A stretch of 64,000 nt of DNA from an uncultured Methanosarcinales archaeon (GCA_964597775.1 CAZQZJ010000002.1:357-64356); one strand, 5' to 3'; positions 17,222 to 54,748 are shown, counted from the first letter of the stretch. Notes: a model not told the origin generated them from the letters alone. A program made the numbers and translations.

Positions 17222-18643
17222 TTAATTTGTTTCAACAAGACCAAGATTATTCTTGTTTTCCTTTTGATTCACTTCTCGCTTCATGCGAATCCGCAGATGT
17301 GCATAATTAGCAGGGTTCTTAATTCTCTTACAAAGAGAATCTGGCATGCAAATGCCTAGATCTTTGTAATATGGCTGGTTGTCACAATTTGGTGGAAGTA
17401 TAGTGCCTTGTGTTTTAAAATGGTGGTTCAGGTGTCCTTTGATAATAACTTCTCTAAGCGGATCTGGGTTTTTCTTATTCCAGTTTTCAATAAGTAGTTC
17501 TATCTGTGCCTGACTCCAACCTGTTGAGCTAAGGAAATTAGTAAGAATAAAGAGTGCTCTTTTTTTACCATCTTGCATGCCTCCTAAGATGTTCATGATG
17601 CATGGTGGAAAATGTTCAAGAGGGATTGCTTCTTGTGGTGTGTCAAAAGCTTTTTTGATTCCGTCAATTCTTTCTTTATCAGGTGGAAGTTTGTAATCAA
17701 ATGCATTGACAAGTAATCGTCTTGCTTCTCCTTGTGCTACTTTAGTACGATCAAGAAATTTTTCTTTTCCAAGATTAATTGATTCTGGTGTTGCCATTGT
17801 CTTATCAAAAGTGATGATTTGAGATGGGTTAATTGGAATTGAAACCAGTCCACTTTTTTCATTAAGCGAGTATGGCATGCGGTAGAGGTGTCTAGAGGAG
17901 ATAAGGACTGTGTCAATAATAAGGACTTTGAATGGATCAAATTCTTTATTTGTCATTAGATCTTCAGGTTTTTTGTTAAGGATTCCACAGATAGTTGATA
18001 GTTGTTGAAATTCAAGAAGTGCTTGTGCAAGTGGTTCACGAATCATTTCACTAAGATATGCAGCAATACGTCTAGGTCCTTGAGGAAACAGGTGTTGTGT
18101 TGGAATGCTATTAATTTCAGATGGAAATGCCTCAAATGGTACAGCAATGTGGAATCCGTGATTTCCTGAGAATTTGATTGTTGTAGAATTAATGCCGTGA
18201 TAAATAAGGACATTATAAAGGATTTGTGCTGCAATTTGTGAATAAGAAAGGATTGGGCAGTCAATGTCTAAGATAAGATCCCAGCCAATGCGAAGGGTGT
18301 CAAGTTCTTGGCGATGCATTTGTGTGGTGAGGTACATAGGGTTTGTCCATAGTTCTTCTGAGCAATGAAATGATGTGGCGCCTTGTTGAACAAGGGTGAT
18401 CACATCGTTTGCAAATTGTAGGGTGTCTGGTCTTTTTCCATAGTTTCCATCTTTGTATCGGATTGCGATTTCCTTTCCATAGGCAAAATCTACAATTATT
18501 TTTTGTATTTCTGGTCTTTTGTAATATTTGAGAATTGTAGAGGTGCTAAGATCCATAAGCCTAGTAGTGTAGATAATCTTCTTAATTCTTGTGATAAGCA
18601 AAGGCGAGCAGTCGGTTTCAAAAGTGGCGTTCTCCTTTGTCAT
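17222..18643 (-). CDS. Fused DNA primase: PriS catalytic domain + PriL C-terminal 4-Cys (Fe-S) domain
   Basis: PriS motifs LILDIDCPI and FSGNHGFHIAV; C-terminal region with 4 spaced Cys (PPCIMN, PNCDN, GICMP, SLCKR) resembling PriL-CTD. Confidence 0.7.
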   Translation of the reverse strand: MTKENATFETDCSPLLITRIKKIIYTTRLMDLSTSTILKYYKRPEIQKIIVDFAYGKEIAIRYKDGNYGKRPDTLQFANDVITLVQQGATSFHCSEELWTNPMYLTTQMHRQELDTLRIGWDLILDIDCPILSYSQIAAQILYNVLIYHGINSTTIKFSGNHGFHIAVPFEAFPSEINSIPTQHLFPQGPRRIAAYLSEMIREPLAQALLEFQQLSTICGILNKKPEDLMTNKEFDPFKVLIIDTVLISSRHLYRMPYSLNEKSGLVSIPINPSQIITFDKTMATPESINLGKEKFLDRTKVAQGEARRLLVNAFDYKLPPDKERIDGIKKAFDTPQEAIPLEHFPPCIMNILGGMQDGKKRALFILTNFLSSTGWSQAQIELLIENWNKKNPDPLREVIIKGHLNHHFKTQGTILPPNCDNQPYYKDLGICMPDSLCKRIKNPANYAHLRIRMKREVNQKENKNNLGLVETN

Positions 18644-18646
18644 CTC

Positions 18647-18850
18647 GTACTTGTTAAGCCAGGTGTTATACAGAGGCGCTGGCGTGGGACGTCAAGATGC
18701 GAGCACTATTATGAAGTTCTACGCAAACCCGAGGAGGTTCCAGATAGGAGGGTTTCTTTGAATAGTTCTGTGAAGTGCGAGCGACGTCCCATTTTTGCGC
18801 AAGCAAAAATAAGCCAGTGCCTCTGCAATAGGTGTGGGCTTAACAAGTAC
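18647..18850 (+). ncRNA. Structured repeat element E, copy 1: 14-bp terminal helix gtacttgttaagcc/ggcttaacaagtac plus internal helices. Candidate ncRNA or MITE-like element
   Basis: Second copy at 35380-35638 with conserved core and compensatory stem change (cagaggcgctggc pairs gccagTgcctctg here and gccagCgcctctg in copy 2). Confidence 0.45.
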
Positions 18851-18867
18851 GTCATCTCCAAACCTTT

Positions 18868-25386: not shown

Positions 25387-25778
25387 GTCTTTGCCTCCGC
25401 AGCATGTGCTGCATCTTTGTTTTCTTTAGGTATATCTTGTAAAAGCCAGAACAAGCTGTACAAGTCAAAGCCGGCCTTTTCCAATTCCTGAGCAGTTGCC
25501 AGATCTGTTTCCAGATATTTAGTTGCTGTTTCCATCATTCGCATGCAGGCAGCAAGAAGGTGTTTGCTAATACACCAAACCTCTCCTTCAGAATCAACAA
25601 CAAGTCTCTTCAGTAGTTTGATACGAAGTTTGCGCACTGCAGCAAGAATATGTAGGTATTTTGGATTGTCTGTCTTTACTGATGTCATGGCTAGATGTTC
25701 TTCAATGCTTACAATGTTCATGATTGCAAAACTCAAGTCCTCCTTATTGGTGAGATCAGCTGAATTTGTCAAGTTCAT
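25383..25778 (-). CDS. Hypothetical helical protein
   Basis: ORF in 5-gene overlapping operon; no recognisable motif. Confidence 0.35.
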   Translation of the reverse strand: MNLTNSADLTNKEDLSFAIMNIVSIEEHLAMTSVKTDNPKYLHILAAVRKLRIKLLKRLVVDSEGEVWCISKHLLAACMRMMETATKYLETDLATAQELEKAGFDLYSLFWLLQDIPKENKDAAHAAEAKT

Positions 25779-26272
25779 ACAAATCCCCCAATAATTAGCA
25801 CAGTGCTGGCTAATAATAAAGATCCTATTAAGATGCTAGTGCCCTGTAGACTAATAAAATTCTTGCCATTGTTCTTTGCTCTTAGTAATCCATGTACTCT
25901 GTGTCCTGTGGTTGACACAAATATGCCAATAACCATTCCACTTAACAATCGAGGAAGACCAAAGAGTAGGCTGTTTGTTTCAAACAATCCACTAATCTTA
26001 AATCCAATAATAGTGATTACTGTAGCAAGTAGGATAAATACTATATCCTGGTTGTACACAAAGTTTTTGTCTTGTTTCTTAAGTGTATTGTCAGCCCATA
26101 AAGCTGTGGAGACTATGAATCCGCCTATGAGTACACCTACTAAGGAATCATCTACACCATACCAGCGTGCAACACTAACAGCAGCACCTGCAGCTGCTGT
26201 GCAGACTGGACAGTGAGCCATTACAGATGGCACTATTCCAAGACTTGTACCAATACCAACAGGCCATCGCAT
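25775..26272 (-). CDS. Integral membrane protein with intramembrane CPVC motif (start at MRWPVGIG; longer ORF rejected because it crosses repeat X1)
   Basis: Multi-TM, CPxC motif typical of metal-translocating sites. Confidence 0.45.
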   Translation of the reverse strand: MRWPVGIGTSLGIVPSVMAHCPVCTAAAGAAVSVARWYGVDDSLVGVLIGGFIVSTALWADNTLKKQDKNFVYNQDIVFILLATVITIIGFKISGLFETNSLLFGLPRLLSGMVIGIFVSTTGHRVHGLLRAKNNGKNFISLQGTSILIGSLLLASTVLIIGGFV

Positions 26273-26281
26273 CCATTGATG

Positions 26282-26380
26282 TCTCAAATGGGTTCTATCC
26301 CGATGCTCTGCATCGGATATATTTGCCAATTTGAGATTAAAAAATACTCCTGGGCTCTTCCCAGGTTGGGATTTTTTATT
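26282..26380. repeat. Intergenic module X, copy 1: TATA-like GGATATATTT(minus AAATATATCC) + A6-hairpin(cctgggc/gcccagg)-T6
   Basis: ~90% identical copy at 43521-43621 immediately upstream of tRNA-Leu; partial copy at 31806-31900. Confidence 0.6.
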
Positions 26381-26384
26381 CATC

Positions 26385-26957
26385 TTAGCACGCTCCAGTT
26401 GCACTCTGCGTTCCTTGTGGGTAGAAAATCTTTTTCCACAACTCAAGTTCTTGCTGGATCTGACTTGAGTTGTAGCCCTTTGTAGTCATGAGTTTAGCCA
26501 AACCAAACATTGCTACATGGTGGCCGCATTCGCAATTATCTTTTGCTTGTAGCTGTTTAACTCCGCAACAAGGCAATTCTACATCAAGGCCAACAAATAT
26601 CCTTTCTTGAGCCAAGGTAGGAATAATTTCTTTTGCATCTTTGAGCAGTTGATCATATCCTGCAGTATCCATTGTTATGCCGTATTCAGTCATCTCGCCT
26701 GTGGCTTTAGCATCATCTATCCCTCCACAGCCAGGGCCGTCCATTTCTGATAATTTTGGATGATGTGTTTTCATCATCTCTTCATTAGAACTAAATCCTT
26801 CGGTTGACATGTCCCCAGCATTTCCTTGTTGTGTCTTAAGAACTACTGCGTCACTTGCTTCCTGGCGACCTGCCCATATCACTGTGAAGATTAGGCTTCC
26901 AACCAGGAATAGTAATACAACAATACCGATTATCTTCTTGTTTTCCATGATAACCAC
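26385..26957 (-). CDS. Membrane-anchored Cys-rich protein (GPGCGG, PCCG, CECGHH motifs)
   Basis: N-terminal TM, multiple Cys/His clusters, first gene of putative metal-handling operon. Confidence 0.45.
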   Translation of the reverse strand: MVIMENKKIIGIVVLLFLVGSLIFTVIWAGRQEASDAVVLKTQQGNAGDMSTEGFSSNEEMMKTHHPKLSEMDGPGCGGIDDAKATGEMTEYGITMDTAGYDQLLKDAKEIIPTLAQERIFVGLDVELPCCGVKQLQAKDNCECGHHVAMFGLAKLMTTKGYNSSQIQQELELWKKIFYPQGTQSATGAC

Positions 26958-27053: not shown

Positions 27054-27172
27054 AATTATATCAAATCACTTTAATTATAGGATATTTTTCCCAGATTAAA
27101 GTGATTTGATTATTAGGAAATAACCTTACTTTCATTTTTGAAATATCCTAAAATTAAGGCTATTTCCTATAG
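27054..27172. repeat. Double-hairpin intergenic repeat, copy 2
   Basis: Matches 1798-1916; stems identical, loop 1 differs. Confidence 0.6.
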
Positions 27173-31786: not shown

Positions 31787-31805
31787 TCTTCGGTGATTGC
31801 TTATG

Positions 31806-31900
31806 TTCTGCATTGGATATATTTACCAATTTCGGGTTTAAAAAATAAGAATTATGCTCCCTAAATGTGAGCAGATCTGTTGCGGTTCTAATTTTTTATT
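31806..31900. repeat. Intergenic module X, degenerate copy 3 (TATA-like part conserved, hairpin diverged), in convergent gap
   Basis: ttctgcattggatatatttaccaattt...tttaaaaaata...aattttttatt aligns to X1/X2. Confidence 0.4.
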
Positions 31901-32187
31901 CGTGTGTATTTTTTGCAGGAAAAGCATGTTATAATAACTGTTCCTTTTCTGGTTCTGATTCTTGCATTAATCCCGCTAATAAGATAGTGATAGCAATGTT
32001 TGCAAAATCTTCGTTTGTATAGTGCTGGAATACGTACATTGAATCGTGTGGAAATGTTGCGTGCAAGTTGAACATATCTATTGGCAAGATCAATTCTATT
32101 TGATGATATCACTGCTGCTTCTTCAAATAATGTATGGATTCGTTCTCGTGCAATAGCACGTTCTTTTGATTTTTGTTGTGGTTTCAT
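31888..32187 (-). CDS. rnp4: RNase P protein subunit Rpp21/Rpr2 (zinc ribbon)
   Basis: RYVQLARNISTRFNVRIPALYKRRFCKHC...ITCFSCKKY matches Rpr2 family pattern. Confidence 0.75.
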   Translation of the reverse strand: MKPQQKSKERAIARERIHTLFEEAAVISSNRIDLANRYVQLARNISTRFNVRIPALYKRRFCKHCYHYLISGINARIRTRKGTVIITCFSCKKYTRIKN

Positions 32188-33314
32188 CTTTGTAGTGCAG
32201 TGATTCCAGGGAGTTTTTTCCCCTCTAAGTATTCAATACTTGCGCCGCCTCCTGTTGAGATGTATGTGATGTTATTCTCAAGTCCTAGTTTGTATAATAT
32301 TGTTGCAGAATCTCCTCCTCCCACAATAGTTGTTGCAGGTGATTGTGCAAGTGCTTGTGCAATTCTTTGTGTTCCAGTAAGAAATGCTTTGTGTTCATAT
32401 GCTCCAAGAGGTCCTGCCCAGAGAATGGTTTTTGTTTTTTTAATTATCTTTTTTAGTAAAGAAACAGTTGCTGGTCCAATATCAAGGATTTTTTCTTTTG
32501 GTTTAATCTCATTGATATAACATGTTCTTGGTATTGCATTTATATTTGTAGCAACTACAGCATCAATAGGGAGAATAATGCGTTGGTCGTGTGCAAAATG
32601 TTTAGCAAGAGAGATTGCTTGTAGATCTATTGTAGATGATCCTATTTGTTTACCGCGTGCTGCAAGAAGTATGTTTCCAAGTATTCCTCCAACAAATATC
32701 CAGTCAGCCTTATTTAAAAGTCCTTTGAGCAAAGAAATTTTGTCTGGCTTTCCACCGCCAATGATGGCAAGGTATGGTTTTTTTGGATGAATTGCAATAG
32801 AGAGGTTATCCATTTCTTTTTTAAGAAGAAGTCCTGCAAAGCTTGGTATGTATTTAGTGATTGCATAGATGCTTGCATGTGGTCTATGGCAACTGCCAAA
32901 GGCGTCGTTGACATATATATCTGCAAGTGATGCAAGTTGTTTTGCAAATTGTTTATTATTTTGTTCTTCTTCTGGGTAGAATCTAAGATTTTCAAGTAAC
33001 ACTACTGGTTTTGTACTAATCTTGATTCCAATGCAACTGGGTGCAGCATAAACTTTTTGGTGAAGGAGTCTTGTGAGTTGTGTTGCAATGGGTTTCATCC
33101 GTAGGTTGTTTCTTATTTTTCCATCTGGTCTGCCAAGGTGGCTCATTATAATAAGTTGTTTTGGTTTTTTAGAAAGAATGTATTTGAGTGTTGGTAGTGC
33201 AGCTCTTATGCGTGAATTGTTTAGGATGTGTTGGTTTTGTATAGGGACATTAAAATCTGTGCGAACAAGAACTCGTTTTCCTTTGATTGGTGCTTTGAGA
33301 ATACTGTGTATCAT
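32184..33314 (-). CDS. pgk: Phosphoglycerate kinase
   Basis: N-terminal RVDFNVP, C-terminal GGGDS and STGGGASIEYLEGKKLPGI motifs. Confidence 0.9.
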   Translation of the reverse strand: MIHSILKAPIKGKRVLVRTDFNVPIQNQHILNNSRIRAALPTLKYILSKKPKQLIIMSHLGRPDGKIRNNLRMKPIATQLTRLLHQKVYAAPSCIGIKISTKPVVLLENLRFYPEEEQNNKQFAKQLASLADIYVNDAFGSCHRPHASIYAITKYIPSFAGLLLKKEMDNLSIAIHPKKPYLAIIGGGKPDKISLLKGLLNKADWIFVGGILGNILLAARGKQIGSSTIDLQAISLAKHFAHDQRIILPIDAVVATNINAIPRTCYINEIKPKEKILDIGPATVSLLKKIIKKTKTILWAGPLGAYEHKAFLTGTQRIAQALAQSPATTIVGGGDSATILYKLGLENNITYISTGGGASIEYLEGKKLPGITALQR

Positions 33315-35331: not shown

Positions 35332-35379
35332 GCTTATACCGCGGGATTATTAGTTATTATTTAAAATCTTCGTTCAGGT

Positions 35380-35638
35380 GTACTTGTTAAGTCTGGTGTT
35401 ATGCAGAGGCGCTGGCGTGGAACGCAACAATGTCGCATTTCTACCTTGTGCACAGCGAAAGCCGAAGGACTCGATTGTGCCAAGATGCGAGCACTATTAT
35501 GAATTTCTACGCAAACCTAAGGAGGTTCCAGATACAAGGGTTTCTTTGAATAGTTCTGTGAAGTGCGAGCGGCGTTGTGTGTTTGCGAGTGCAAAAACAA
35601 GCCAGCGCCTCTGCAATCGATGGGGGTCTAACAAGTAC
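35380..35638 (+). ncRNA. Structured repeat element E, copy 2 (with ~50-nt internal insertion relative to copy 1)
   Basis: Terminal helix gtacttgtta.../...taacaagtac, conserved 90-nt core, compensatory stem change vs copy 1. Confidence 0.45.
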
Positions 35639-35640
35639 GT

Positions 35641-37026
35641 TCAGGTGAGGCGTAGTGTTTCTCCATTATTCATTGGGTGTATTGTTTGGTCTATATGGTA
35701 TCCTAGTTCGTCACTAAGTTTGTGGAATGAATCCATCATGATATGTCCTCCATGTGAAGGGATTAGGTGTTGTGGTTTGAGGTATTTGAGAAGGTCGCGA
35801 AGATCCTCTTTGCTTGCATGTCCTGATACATGAACATCCTTAAAAATGCGTACACCAAATTTTTTAAGATCTGCTTCAAGTTCAGCTCTATTTTGTTCAT
35901 TAATTTGTGTTGGGATTACTTTGCAAGAAAAGATGATGTGGTCTTCTGTTTTAAAAGTGAATGGTAACACTCCATGTGTCATTCTGTGTAGTACAGATTT
36001 TGGTTCTCCTTGGTGGCCAGTAGCAACAATGACGTATTTGTCTCGTTTTTTATTAATTTTAGTAAGAATTTGTGCAACATGTTTTGGATATTTGACAATT
36101 TCAACAGTATCAAAATGTATAAGTCCGCAGGCTATTGCAGCTTCCACATATTTTGAAAGTGAGCGTCCAAGAAAAACAACCTTGCGATTAAGTTTTCGTG
36201 AAAATTCCACAATTGATTTAAGTCTGGCAATATGGCTTGAGAATGTGGTAACAATGATTGCCTTGCCTTTACTATTTACAGAAAGCATAACTTCTTGTAG
36301 CATTTGTCGTGCTACACTTTCTGATGGCGTTTTTCCTTCTAATGGTGCATAAAGGCATTCTGAAATAAGTAAAGCAACGCCTTTGTTTCCAATAGATTCA
36401 AGTAGTTGATATGGTGGTTTTTTGCCTATGATAGGTGTATTATCAAGTTTGAAATCATTTGCATATACAATTGCGCCGTATGGTGTGTGAAGTACAACAA
36501 GGCATGAGTGTGGGGTTGAATGTGTGATTTCTATTAATTGTATTGCAAGAGTAGTTGTGAGTTGAATAAGTTTATTCATATCAGTTACAATCAATTCATT
36601 AGGAAGATGAATATGTTCGTCAGATAATATGCGTTTTATGACTTCTAGTGTGAATGGTGATGCTATAATTGGTGCATTGTATTTAGCAGCAAGGTATGGA
36701 ATAGCTCCAATATGGTCAAGATGTGCATGAGAAGGAATAATCGCGCGTACCTGATTCTTCCAATCAGCAATAATTGAGTCATCTGGTATTGCTTGGGCAT
36801 TAATAAGTTGTTGAGTAGAGATTTTAACAAGATCCTCTTCTTCAGTAATATTGATATAGTTGGGAAGATGAATCCCCATATCAATAATGATTACATCATT
36901 ATCAATCTTAATAGCAGTCATATTTTTGCCAATTTCACCATATCCTCCAATTGCACGCACTTCAATTCCCATAGAATACTGTTGAAAAGTCAGCTTAATA
37001 ATCCTATCGTTCAAAGAAAAAATCAT
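35641..37026 (-). CDS. Archaeal RNase J-like beta-CASP metallo-beta-lactamase ribonuclease
   Basis: HxHxDH motif (PSHAHLDHIGA), beta-CASP region, ~460 aa. Confidence 0.75.
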   Translation of the reverse strand: MIFSLNDRIIKLTFQQYSMGIEVRAIGGYGEIGKNMTAIKIDNDVIIIDMGIHLPNYINITEEEDLVKISTQQLINAQAIPDDSIIADWKNQVRAIIPSHAHLDHIGAIPYLAAKYNAPIIASPFTLEVIKRILSDEHIHLPNELIVTDMNKLIQLTTTLAIQLIEITHSTPHSCLVVLHTPYGAIVYANDFKLDNTPIIGKKPPYQLLESIGNKGVALLISECLYAPLEGKTPSESVARQMLQEVMLSVNSKGKAIIVTTFSSHIARLKSIVEFSRKLNRKVVFLGRSLSKYVEAAIACGLIHFDTVEIVKYPKHVAQILTKINKKRDKYVIVATGHQGEPKSVLHRMTHGVLPFTFKTEDHIIFSCKVIPTQINEQNRAELEADLKKFGVRIFKDVHVSGHASKEDLRDLLKYLKPQHLIPSHGGHIMMDSFHKLSDELGYHIDQTIHPMNNGETLRLT

Positions 37027-43166: not shown

Positions 43167-43430
43167 TCTTTGAATCAACGATAAGTATGTGATAAATATG
43201 TGGTCCTAATATAGTTTAATATTTCAATTACCTTTCCAGGATTTCCTCTTCCAACAGGGAAATAACAAGGAATTACAAGGTATTCCATCCCAAAAATAGG
43301 TTTGCGTTAAAAATATCTTCCAAATCTCTTTTGTTCCAACAAATGGGAATCTTACTCAGTTATATTCTAGAGATGAGGTGGTTAAATCACTCATTAAACC
43401 CTCTAAGTGTAACTTATTCAATAGGTTTAG

Positions 43431-43514
43431 TGCAAGGAGCAGGATTCGAACCTGCGAACGCACTAAGCGAACAGCTCTTGAGGCTGCCCCGTTTGACCAC
43501 TCCGGAATCCTTGC
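43431..43514 (-). tRNA. tRNA-Leu (anticodon CAA), class II with long variable arm
   Basis: Hand-folded: acceptor GCAAGGA/UCCUUGC, anticodon loop CUCAAGA, 15-nt variable arm, T-arm GCAGGUUCGAAUCCUGC; CCA not encoded. Confidence 0.85.
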
Positions 43515-43520
43515 ATGGTT

Positions 43521-43621
43521 TCTCAAATGGGTTCATACCCCATATGCTCTGCATAGGATATATTTACCCATTTGAGATTAAAAAATACCCCTGGGCTCTG
43601 CCCAGGTTGGGATTTTTTATT
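43521..43621. repeat. Intergenic module X, copy 2, immediately upstream of tRNA-Leu; contains the probable tRNA promoter TATA
   Basis: ~90% identity to 26282-26380 including the A6-hairpin-T6 structure. Confidence 0.6.
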
Positions 43622-43732
43622 TCTGGTGTTGAAGTATGGATATGGATTTATAAAACTAGAGATTGTGTGTGTAAAAATACACTCATAAAAAACAGCATCG
43701 TTACAGTTAGAATAGTGCTATTTAAATAATGT

Positions 43733-44101
43733 TTACTCTAATCCTTTGAGTTCAGCCTCAATCTTTGCAAGTTCTGTTTCAAGCACTGTGACTTTATCAG
43801 GTTCTGTTTTTTGTTGTGCAGTTGCTCTTCGATCTTCAATGATTTTTTTTACCTGTGTTGCAGGAGCTGCTTTAAGTGGGGCTTTTGGCATAGCATTTTT
43901 AAGGCGTTTGTTAAGAACAATGATCTCTTCTGCTATGCGTTTGTATTCATTAGTAAGTTCATGTTTTTCTTGGCGTAGTAATCCAATCTGGTCATATGAT
44001 TTAAGTGATCCAATAATCTCTTTGATTGAGAGAAGAATTTCTCTTCTAATAAGTGATGGATTAGGTACACCTACATAGAGTGGGTTTTGTTCCTGTGCCA
44101 T
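43733..44101 (-). CDS. Small coiled-coil protein, member of a tandem paralog trio
   Basis: N-terminal LYVGVPNPSLIRREILLSIKEI block similar to the N-terminal/C-terminal blocks of the next two genes. Confidence 0.35.
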   Translation of the reverse strand: MAQEQNPLYVGVPNPSLIRREILLSIKEIIGSLKSYDQIGLLRQEKHELTNEYKRIAEEIIVLNKRLKNAMPKAPLKAAPATQVKKIIEDRRATAQQKTEPDKVTVLETELAKIEAELKGLE

Positions 44102-50412: not shown

Positions 50413-50439
50413 TGATCTAACTCTTACTGTCTTATCCAG

Positions 50440-50800
50440 GGTGCAGACGAAGCCAACGGTAACATCATATTGTTTGGTGTCTCTGAGGAAAGTCTGCCCA
50501 CATCCAGGATCTTTAGTTCAAATCTAAAGATTCTGCAGACAAGCGGTACCTATCCAAACAATAGGATCCAGTAATGGATGGCAACATCACCGAAACGACA
50601 CGGCCATATGCAGATGAGAATGACGCAGTGAAGTCCTTGGTAACAGGGATGAGTTAACCTGTAGAATGATGCATAATGGATGCGATGAAACGGATAGCCC
50701 TATCGTGTGCAAGGCAAACAAGATGCAAGTAGTTCATAAAAACATGTCTGCGTGCTCTTCACATGCCGCTTAGTTGAATGCTTCGGCAGATCATCGGAAG
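50440..50800 (+). ncRNA. rnpB: Candidate RNase P RNA
   Basis: Non-coding 480-bp gap with TATA; CR-I-like GAGGAAAGUCUGCCC at 50485-50499; distal GGCAGAU (50785-50791) can pair with GUCUGCC to form a P4-like helix. Confidence 0.35.
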
Positions 50801-50877
50801 GATGTTATAATCTTTCTTTGGGTCTGACAAAAGGCAGCTTATATGCGCCCTGGATCTTTTTTAAGGTGAGGAAGAGT

Positions 50878-54596: not shown

Positions 54597-54748
54597 ATCT
54601 AGGTAAAAAGAGCAAGCCTTTTTAAGTGTTACACCAGAAAAGGAGAATCACGTTAAAGCCAGTCATGTCACACCACAGGATTTTGAAAAAAAGAGGTCGC
54701 AACCGGCTTTTTCAAAATCCTTAATAGATAATCCTTAAAAAGCATCTG

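Follow-up and report, generated by a model that had tools for sequence, protein, structure and literature searches.

A Probable Small Interspersed Repeat, Rich in Hairpins, in the Intergenic Spacers of a DPANN Archaeon

Introduction

Repeat X is a hairpin-rich intergenic unit found in a 64,000-nt stretch of DNA (GCA_964597775.1, CAZQZJ010000002.1:357–64356; hereafter the window) from a metagenome-assembled genome of a DPANN archaeon from Hainich groundwater. X is probably (at a rough probability of 0.55) a non-coding, non-autonomous small interspersed repeat resembling REP (repetitive extragenic palindromic), SPRITE, and Correia elements, with predicted terminator side-effects. Its copies are 90–93% identical, have unrelated flanks, and lie in spacers that would otherwise be ~8–30 nt long, which argues that they arrived by insertion. 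A sequence-only reading of the window had described X as a portable insulator/promoter cassette that punctuates operons. The discrete, portable unit of ~105 bp is borne out, but a dedicated promoter and a role in operon punctuation are not supported. The copies look like intrusions tolerated by the genome rather than a punctuating device, because the promoter-like box is weak and lies 43 nt from the next gene, two copies (X3 and X4) are in convergent gaps, X2 is superfluous where it lies, and X1 splits an operon junction.

In the proposed mechanism, X would have colonized very short intergenic spacers together with at least three co-oriented, hairpin-rich repeat families. Spread would occur by strand-specific, hairpin-recognizing copy-and-paste, similar to that of REP elements with their RAYT transposases or of elements derived from the insertion sequences IS200/IS605, a mode that would leave neither terminal inverted repeats nor target duplications. 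Judging from archaeal biology, the T6 tracts of a landed copy would stop RNA polymerase arriving from either side, and hairpin B of X would cap the 3′ ends made at T6. The weakest step is the continued expression of the rest of an operon split by X1 and of a tRNA-Leu gene beside X2, which would depend on read-through of T6, re-initiation at an A/T box within X, or both.

Copies of Repeat X

Copies were identified by self-BLAST of a 72-kb stretch consisting of the window and an extending contig (L002), and X4 was found through that extension. All copies have the same orientation.

X1, 26277–26380, + strand: full copy (self-BLAST, folding, and covariance model, 119 bits)
X2, 43516–43621, + strand: full copy (self-BLAST, folding, terminator scan, and covariance model)
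X3, 31802–31900, + strand: partial or rearranged copy (self-BLAST; covariance model, 25.3 bits, E ~9e-4)
X4, L002:17212–17316, + strand, 5.3 kb past the end of the window: full copy (self-BLAST)

X1 and X2 are 89.6% identical across 106 nt (E 3.6e-26), in agreement with the ~90% first claimed, and X4 is 91–93% identical to both. The description of X3 as a degraded copy also holds: positions 31802–31847 match X1 and X2 at 87% across 45–46 nt, and the A6 and T6ATT tracts are kept, with a different middle. A 25-mer core common to the copies occurs three times, vs 0.00 times expected in shuffled sequence. X1, X2, and X4 have sharp unit ends and unrelated flanks; the unit first delimited is real, but its left edge lies 5 nt further left, at a TGRTK motif. 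A covariance model built from the three full copies and run without filters on 85 kb recovered the full copies, X3, and a single weak relative, termed Y (see below).

The sequences are identical in several separate assemblies (ENA replicate-sample assemblies and Logan contigs), and X is therefore not an assembly artefact. Logan short-read contigs stop within X2 (the end of L008 corresponds to window position ~43599) and within Z, part of a companion repeat described below (the end of L001 corresponds to ~27130), a sign that both repeats have multiple genomic copies at which the assembly graph branches.

The search for more copies that had been proposed thus yielded X4 beyond the window and none in the other collections searched. 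No further copy was found with exact or degenerate patterns in genome, metagenome, and viral contig collections, and blastn of X2 against plasmids and phages gave no match. Peptides from the open frames of X matched just two open reading frames (ORFs) in a set of 5.8 billion proteins, both on the same contig as the window. As regards the host, the window contains an archaeal RNase P RNA (50439–50850), tRNA-His, and tRNA-Leu(CAA) (ARAGORN, Rfam). Proteins identical to those of the window occur on contigs from well H51 of the Hainich groundwater observatory and in an NCBI metagenome-assembled genome named “Nanoarchaeota archaeon.” In the same protein set, the closest relative of its phosphoglycerate kinase (PGK), from a Woesearchaeota metagenome-assembled genome, is 59% identical, and hence no close relative is available for comparison.

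Structure of Repeat X

On the + strand, X consists of TGRTK, hairpin A, TTAAAAAATA, hairpin B, and TTGGGATTTTTTATT (~105 bp in all). Hairpin A has a 12-bp outer stem (TCTCAAATGGGT/ACCCATTTGAGA) surrounding GGGTTCATACCCC, an inner hairpin, (G/T)ATGC-TCT-GCAT(C/A), and an A/T box, GGATATATTTACC. Hairpin B is CCTGGGC-TCT-GCCCAGG, clamped by A6 and T6, and the apex of both hairpins is GC-TCT-GC. The positions of these parts are as follows.

X1, + strand: hairpin A, 26282–26336; A6, 26339–26344; hairpin B core, 26349–26365; T6, 26372–26377
X2, + strand: hairpin A, 43521–43577; A6, 43580–43585; hairpin B core, 43590–43606; T6, 43613–43618

The CCTGGG(C)..(G)CCCAGG hairpin between A6 and T6 had been recognized in the sequence-only reading, which missed hairpin A: the TATA-like box and the GAACCCATTTGAGA block singled out there both lie inside it. 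The GAACCCATTTGAGA block is shared by the copies as described, but the supposed initially transcribed block corresponds, in minus-strand view, to the 3′ arm of hairpin A. X3 retains the inner hairpin with the A/T box (31802–31847), A6 (31840–31845), and T6ATT (31892–31900); it is without the 5′ arm of hairpin A, and its central hairpin differs.

The full copies fold far more stably than shuffled sequences on both strands, as RNA or as DNA (z −4.6 to −7.6, with −4.6 to −6.5 for X1 and X2 in the first comparison); the fold of X3 is not significant against shuffles. Among the stem changes in the three full copies is one compensatory change, G:C to T:A, in the inner stem, and single changes yielding G.T pairs number four on the + strand vs one on the minus strand. 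With DNA parameters, the outer stem of hairpin A in X4 forms on the + strand only, a hint from modeling of strand specificity, short of proof.

The ends of X are not those of a classical transposon. The first 30 nt aligned with the reverse complement of the last 30 nt score 5–7, within the shuffled range (mean 4.6, 95th percentile 7), so that terminal inverted repeats were not detected; a target-site duplication was likewise not found, the longest word common to the left and right junctions being 4 nt and different in each copy. The left junctions are TGATG, TGGTT, and TGATT, and two copies of the companion repeat YZW follow TTATT. Both hairpins are subterminal: A begins 5 nt from the left end, and B with its clamp finishes 2–3 nt from the right end. 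In X1, X2, and X4, the tail that follows hairpin B (CCCAGGTTGGGATT) is similar to the 3′ arm of hairpin A (CCCATTTGAGATT), and the two halves of X may derive from a duplicated single hairpin unit.

Strong, strand-tolerant structure (z ~ −6) would also be expected if X, on one strand, encoded a small structured RNA or a piece of a processed one, with hairpin B and its T-tract as the terminator of that gene. G.U-compatible substitutions favor the + strand, and several copies of the companion repeats D1 and YZW are closely preceded by a TATA box on the + strand. Such a gene is nonetheless quite improbable. Upstream of X1, X2, and X4 there is no TATA-like box on the + strand, and antisense coding sequence or tRNA is located there. 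The sole internal + strand box, which is also the best promoter-like match inside X (TTAAAAAA box in the A6 tract ttgagaTTAAAAAA; 7.5 bits), would place the start of transcription right at the T6 tract. No Rfam family is matched by X, whether at the gathering threshold or with E relaxed to 5, and X3 lacks half of the structure.

More specific identities were also considered. A sub-threshold match to sR46 spans the junction of X4 and Y (27.7 bits vs a gathering score of 50) and has no C box, and a C/D-box sRNA was rejected. A tRNA-like origin of GGGTTCATACCCC was rejected, as ARAGORN and the Rfam tRNA model are silent and the stem is not kept in X1. The template or variable repeat of a diversity-generating retroelement was rejected because the differences among copies are not adenine-specific, and a CRISPR or tandem array because the copies are kilobases apart.

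A perfect inverted repeat of 11–12 bp, both arms of which are conserved, brackets the A/T box, as might be the case in a site acting at the DNA level, e.g., an operator shared by the operon beside X1 and tRNA-Leu, a cruciform, or a nucleoid-protein site. This is very improbable. A separation of 35 nt between the arms would be unusual for a dimeric regulator; 100 nt at 90% identity is far beyond the needs of an operator; and half of the copies are located in convergent gaps. In addition, the stem of the related Y hairpin is altered on both sides, which points to selection on a hairpin, or its generation, rather than to a fixed binding sequence.

Sites of the Full Copies X1 and X2

X1 splits an 8-nt junction within a tight cluster of four minus-strand genes.

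25775–26272, − strand: gene for a CPVC membrane protein, 165 aa, downstream of X1 (delimited by homologue alignments)
26385–26948, − strand: 187-aa gene, first of the four-gene cluster, with its stop codon 4 nt from the right edge of X1

The site reads TAAGATG[X1]ATGGATG, and removal of X1 leaves TAA-GATGATGG-ATG. In the public annotation, the CPVC protein has 202 aa and starts at 26383, inside X1. Its homologues are mostly ~165–180 aa long and align from query residues ~29–69 (mostly 38–58) onward; the start is therefore the ATG at 26272, and the 202-aa start is an artefact. That X might be coding, as an N-terminal extension of CPVC or as a conserved micro-ORF (MLCIGYI...), is suggested by this public start and by two frames that are open through X1, but is extremely improbable. 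The same frame has stop codons in X2 and X4, and differences in the open + frame comprise five non-synonymous vs two synonymous changes, with no common stop. X therefore carries no coding signal, and both coding candidates were rejected on these stops and on the homologue alignments.

X2 is located immediately beside the gene for tRNA-Leu(CAA), on the following background.

43430–43514, − strand: tRNA-Leu(CAA), with its 5′ end 1 nt from the left edge of X2 (ARAGORN, Rfam)
43647–43654, − strand: canonical TATA box tctagtTTTATAAA (TTTATAAA box), 5.2 bits with the promoter matrix described below, 25 nt from the right edge of X2
43687–43692, − strand: T6 tract, 40 nt past the stop of gene 43733–44101 and upstream of the tRNA-Leu TATA box

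Reconstruction of the empty site places the TTTATAAA box 26 nt from the 5′ end of tRNA-Leu. The spacing from TATA box to RNA is 24 nt for tRNA-His and 27 nt for RNase P RNA, and since the restored spacing matches this norm, X2 appears to have landed between an existing promoter and its tRNA. The TTTATAAA box at 43647–43654 is likely the original tRNA-Leu promoter, now parted from its gene by X2. X2 is not needed as punctuation here, the upstream gene having its own T6 at 43687–43692.

Sites of X3 and X4 in Convergent Gaps

X3 is in a convergent gap by the gene calls, as had been noted earlier, and X4 is in another. X4 and the adjoining 285-nt YZW repeat fill the whole of their gap, of which ~7 nt would otherwise be left. 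At its right end, X3 runs into the gene for Rpr2, an RNase P protein, and covers the final codons and the stop. The syntenic PGK–Rpr2 convergent gap in the nearest relative, the one locus compared, is 31 nt long and has no X-like sequence. The overlapping segment, 31888–31900 (GAATAAAAAATTAG, minus strand), comprises the last four codons and the stop of Rpr2, and the C-terminus differs between the relative and the window (..TRLPLKIV* and ..TRIKN*, respectively). Insertion of X3 may have remodeled it.

The PGK gene itself (32184–33314, minus strand) is of bacterial type. Its best matches are from Woesearchaeota (59%) and an unnamed source (55%), followed by named matches at 45–51% that are all bacterial (Desulfitobacterium, Omnitrophota, Anaerolineae), which suggests an old horizontal acquisition.

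The Promoter-Like Box

AAATATATCC is found on the minus strand of X1 (26323–26314) and X2 (43565–43556).

26314–26323, − strand: TATA-like box of X1, GGCAAATATATCC, inside hairpin A; −3.3 bits
43556–43565, − strand: TATA-like box of X2, GGGTAAATATATCC; 2.3 bits

The AAATATAT core is separated by 43 nt from the ATG at 26272 (X1) or from the tRNA-Leu 5′ end at 43514 (X2). The box that had been reported ~40 nt upstream of the gene is thus present, but it matches the promoters of this genome poorly. The genomic promoter consensus, (A)TAAYC-TTTAAAWA, occurs upstream of ~20 genes, tRNA-His, and RNase P RNA. The end of the TTTAAAWA box is mostly 21–23 nt from the ATG (up to ~37 nt for a few genes), which indicates that most mRNAs are leaderless, and 24–27 nt from RNA genes. 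With a matrix of 19 sites from this genome, which themselves score 5.3–14.4 bits (1.5–13.4 bits in leave-one-out scoring), the AAATATAT box scores −3.3 (X1), 2.3 (X2), 3.3 (X4), and 1.5 (X3) bits, i.e., under all training scores and at or below the bottom of the leave-one-out range. The matrix being a small one of hand-chosen sites, the box is better described as weak than as absent. A leader of ~18–20 nt would fit the 43-nt spacing and is possible, if atypical in this genome.

These data bear on the proposal that X is a purpose-built terminator-plus-promoter cassette, in which AAATATAT would be a TFB recognition element with TATA box and initiation would occur ~20 nt upstream of the next gene. 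The box faces the downstream gene at equal distance in X1 and X2, with no other A/T box between; T6 lies just upstream, so some re-initiation would aid expression; the GGG/GG and A-rich context upstream is loosely like that of the tRNA-His promoter GAAAGGGTTTTTAAATA; and T6 on both strands fits archaeal terminators. The proposal is nevertheless unlikely. The range of −3.3 to 3.3 bits compares with 5.3–14.4 bits for reference sites, and 43 nt to the gene start with 22–27 nt elsewhere in the genome. In X3 and X4, two of the four copies, the box is directed at the 3′ ends of convergent genes and has no gene to serve, X2 lies downstream of an existing terminator and a canonical promoter, and X1 breaks an 8-nt operon junction. 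The related Y hairpin has no A/T box, and terminators of the hairpin-plus-T type are not general in this genome (15 sites vs 12.1 expected). The X box is a putative promoter whose match to the genomic consensus is weak, and any such role would be a side-effect of X rather than its purpose.

T-Tracts as Predicted Terminators

Archaeal terminators are U4–U7 tracts that do not need a hairpin and at which aCPSF1 is recruited (PMC8716108). X supplies T6 on both strands, with hairpin B ahead of each, as had been claimed of a bidirectional terminator-like structure, and the predicted termination from both sides is therefore plausible. Minus-strand hairpin B with T6 in X provides the two best matches of a terminator scan in 20 kb; hairpin-plus-T sites overall are not above chance. 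T6 lies 40–42 nt past the stops of genes 26385–26948 and 31888–32187 and past the + strand gene beside X4. Judged by sequence, the T6 tract of either strand could plausibly serve as an archaeal terminator. X has a single T6 per strand, whereas efficient archaeal termination is linked to two or more U4 tracts. A role other than termination, e.g., propagation of the element or protection of 3′ ends, accounts better for the conserved hairpins.

The order of A-tract, GC hairpin, and T-tract is shared by X with bidirectional intrinsic terminators and archaeal U-tract terminators. Ordinary terminators, however, are single-copy and locally evolved, whereas X is a 90%-identical multi-copy unit that also contains hairpin A.

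Companion Repeat Families

Self-comparison of the 72 kb revealed three further hairpin-rich repeat families besides X, listed here with their parts.

1738–2022 and L002:17315–17598, + strand: YZW, 285 nt (self-BLAST)
1743–1798, + strand: Y hairpin, a diverged relative of hairpin A (covariance model, 19.1 bits, E 0.025)
27054–27172, + strand: Z alone, 119 nt (self-comparison)
18635–18852, 35357–35641, L002:19693–19977, and L009:1062–1243, + strand: D1, ~285 nt, at least four copies
54621–54725 and L002:18362–18464, co-oriented: hairpin family, 77% identical, AGGATTTTGAAAAA..TTTTTCAAAATCCT (self-BLAST)

Y is the 5′ end of YZW, the second copy of which directly adjoins X4. By hand count, Y and hairpin A are identical at ~23 of 33 positions on the 5′ side. 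Y has retained GGGTTCA..CTCTGC, has no A/T box, and differs from hairpin A in both sides of the outer stem (TCAGAAT/ATTCTGA). YZW ends in ATTTTTTTATT, as does X, and contains four long hairpins (z ~ −6 to −7), of which the Z part forms two near-perfect ones of ~15–19 bp. Because Z also occurs alone at 27054–27172, it appears to have been inserted into a two-hairpin “YW” element; this suggests nested insertion. Ahead of the YZW copy at 1738 is a strong canonical promoter, cataccTTTATATA (10.4 bits); it stops at 1710, which leaves 27 nt to the left end of the copy.

D1 has a long closing stem (GTACTTGTTAAG/CTTAACAAGTAC) and a consensus fold of 76 pairs, seven of which show compensatory double changes among three copies; one copy has a 55-nt internal deletion. 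A TATA-type box is seen by eye 12–14 nt upstream in three of four copies, and two reach at least 5 bits. The open frame of D1 shows no purifying selection, and D1 has no match in Rfam. It may represent a new structured RNA or a further mobile element. D1 open-frame peptides matched one new 1.2-kb contig (L009) and one NCBI protein in the protein set, and no match was obtained with D1 and Z patterns in viral contigs or with D1 by blastn against plasmids.

Both copies of the 54621–54725 family lie in promoter-containing regions upstream of minus-strand genes. At L002 18660–18850, three tandem hairpins with TCAGRA...TYCTGA feet, the same foot as in Y, occur in an unusually long intergenic region of 576 nt between NucS and a SIMPL-domain gene. 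The idea that hairpins with such feet are enriched throughout the window was rejected, as their counts there are not above chance.

Orientation and Proposed Spread of the Repeats

All eight within-family orientation comparisons in the 72 kb are of the same strand (p ~0.004). Although the genes face both ways, the + strand shows positive GC skew in 15 of 16 bins of 4 kb, and the repeats are co-oriented with it. A more speculative proposal, which is rather doubtful, extends the interpretation of X as a small interspersed repeat: X, “YW,” Z, and D1 would constitute an undescribed mobile system in which hairpins are recognized strand-specifically, an archaeal counterpart of REPs and the bacterial interspersed mosaic elements (BIMEs) that moves via ssDNA or RNA. 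X would then have been co-opted as a bidirectional terminator with a re-start promoter, harmless in operons and between the promoter and an essential tRNA gene.

Several points weigh against X as a repeat spread by strand-specific mobility. The four known copies, three of them full, are all in one 72-kb stretch from a single clonal population. None of the other genomes searched yielded a copy, so that any mobility between genomes is conjectural, and no presence/absence polymorphism was found, the repeats being 100% identical in all Hainich assemblies. Among the called genes of ~60 kb (the fetched contigs, with Pfam coverage beginning after the first ~12 kb of the window), there was no transposase, integrase, Y1/HUH protein, RAYT, or reverse transcriptase. 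The TGRTK flank motif is seen at three sites only and may be part of the element, and the four-to-one strand asymmetry in G.T pairs is not significant alone. Finally, transcription instead of replication could underlie the orientation bias, since each of the four copies in co-directional gaps has minus-strand genes on either side.

Comparison With Known Repeats

X is filed here under a broad kind, the small interspersed palindromic repeats with regulatory side-effects; it is no more than a candidate member of the REP group or of the palindrome-associated transposable elements (PATEs). X is not a classical MITE (miniature transposable element with inverted repeats) of the DDE type: it is small, non-coding, multi-copy, and intergenic with unrelated flanks, but has neither terminal inverted repeats nor a target duplication.

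SPRITE is a bacterial terminator-like interspersed element that clusters with BOX and RUP, and small repeat families of this sort bunch and insert in or next to one another in intergenic regions (PMC10969869). Like X, SPRITE is a small non-coding interspersed repeat with a core of a hairpin plus a T-run, and similar clustering is seen where X4 adjoins YZW and Z is nested in YZW. Unlike X, SPRITE is bacterial; the two are unrelated in sequence, X has a second, larger hairpin, and the archaeal terminator signal is the T-tract rather than the hairpin.

Correia elements can supply outward promoters, are co-transcribed as hairpin RNA, and alter the expression of neighboring genes (PMC10969869). These MITEs of Neisseria resemble X in being repeats of ~100–200 bp located mostly just upstream of or between genes. 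Their promoters have been demonstrated experimentally, whereas the X box is weak and predicted from sequence. Neither the 26-bp terminal inverted repeats nor the TA target duplication of Correia elements has a counterpart in X.

REPs and BIMEs of proteobacteria are mobilized by RAYT (Y1/HUH), and their roles include termination and the protection of mRNA 3′ ends. They share with X imperfect intergenic palindromes, often at the 3′ ends of genes, that form mosaics of several units; the absence of terminal inverted repeats and target duplications; and recognition as strand-specific hairpins, which for X is presumed. Within the 72 kb, X4 with YZW and the three tandem hairpins at L002 18660–18850 form mosaics of hairpin units that may be comparable to those of REPs. 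REPs are 20–40 nt long, carry a conserved GTAG foot, and number in the hundreds, with a RAYT gene nearby, whereas X has hairpins of 55 and 41 nt (units of 41–57 nt), a TCTCAA foot, and no GTAG.

PATEs derived from IS200/IS605 (e.g., in Haloquadratum) occur in archaea; they have subterminal hairpins, neither terminal inverted repeats nor target duplications, and a strand or orientation bias, and insert beside a short conserved flank motif. X is similar in its subterminal hairpins at both ends, its lack of terminal inverted repeats and target duplication, and its co-oriented copies. It differs in that no TnpA or TnpB was found near X, its ends are unlike those of known insertion sequences, and the flank motif is based on three sites.

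Significance

The kind of element is not surprising in itself, as small interspersed palindromic repeats that act on promoters or terminators as a side-effect are familiar from bacteria and are present in some archaea. DPANN genomes, however, are tiny and tightly packed, and their non-coding DNA is little known; within a limited literature search, we know of no earlier repeat of this type from a DPANN genome. Co-oriented hairpin repeats make up ~3% of the 72-kb stretch and are found at operon junctions, in a promoter–tRNA gap, and in convergent gaps. The practical effects are mis-annotation of the CPVC start (202 aa vs ~165 aa) and breaks in short-read assemblies. If the T-tracts act as predicted, repeats of the X type would be a natural source of compact archaeal terminator parts, and if the weak A/T box is active as well, such repeats would reshape transcription units in a streamlined genome.

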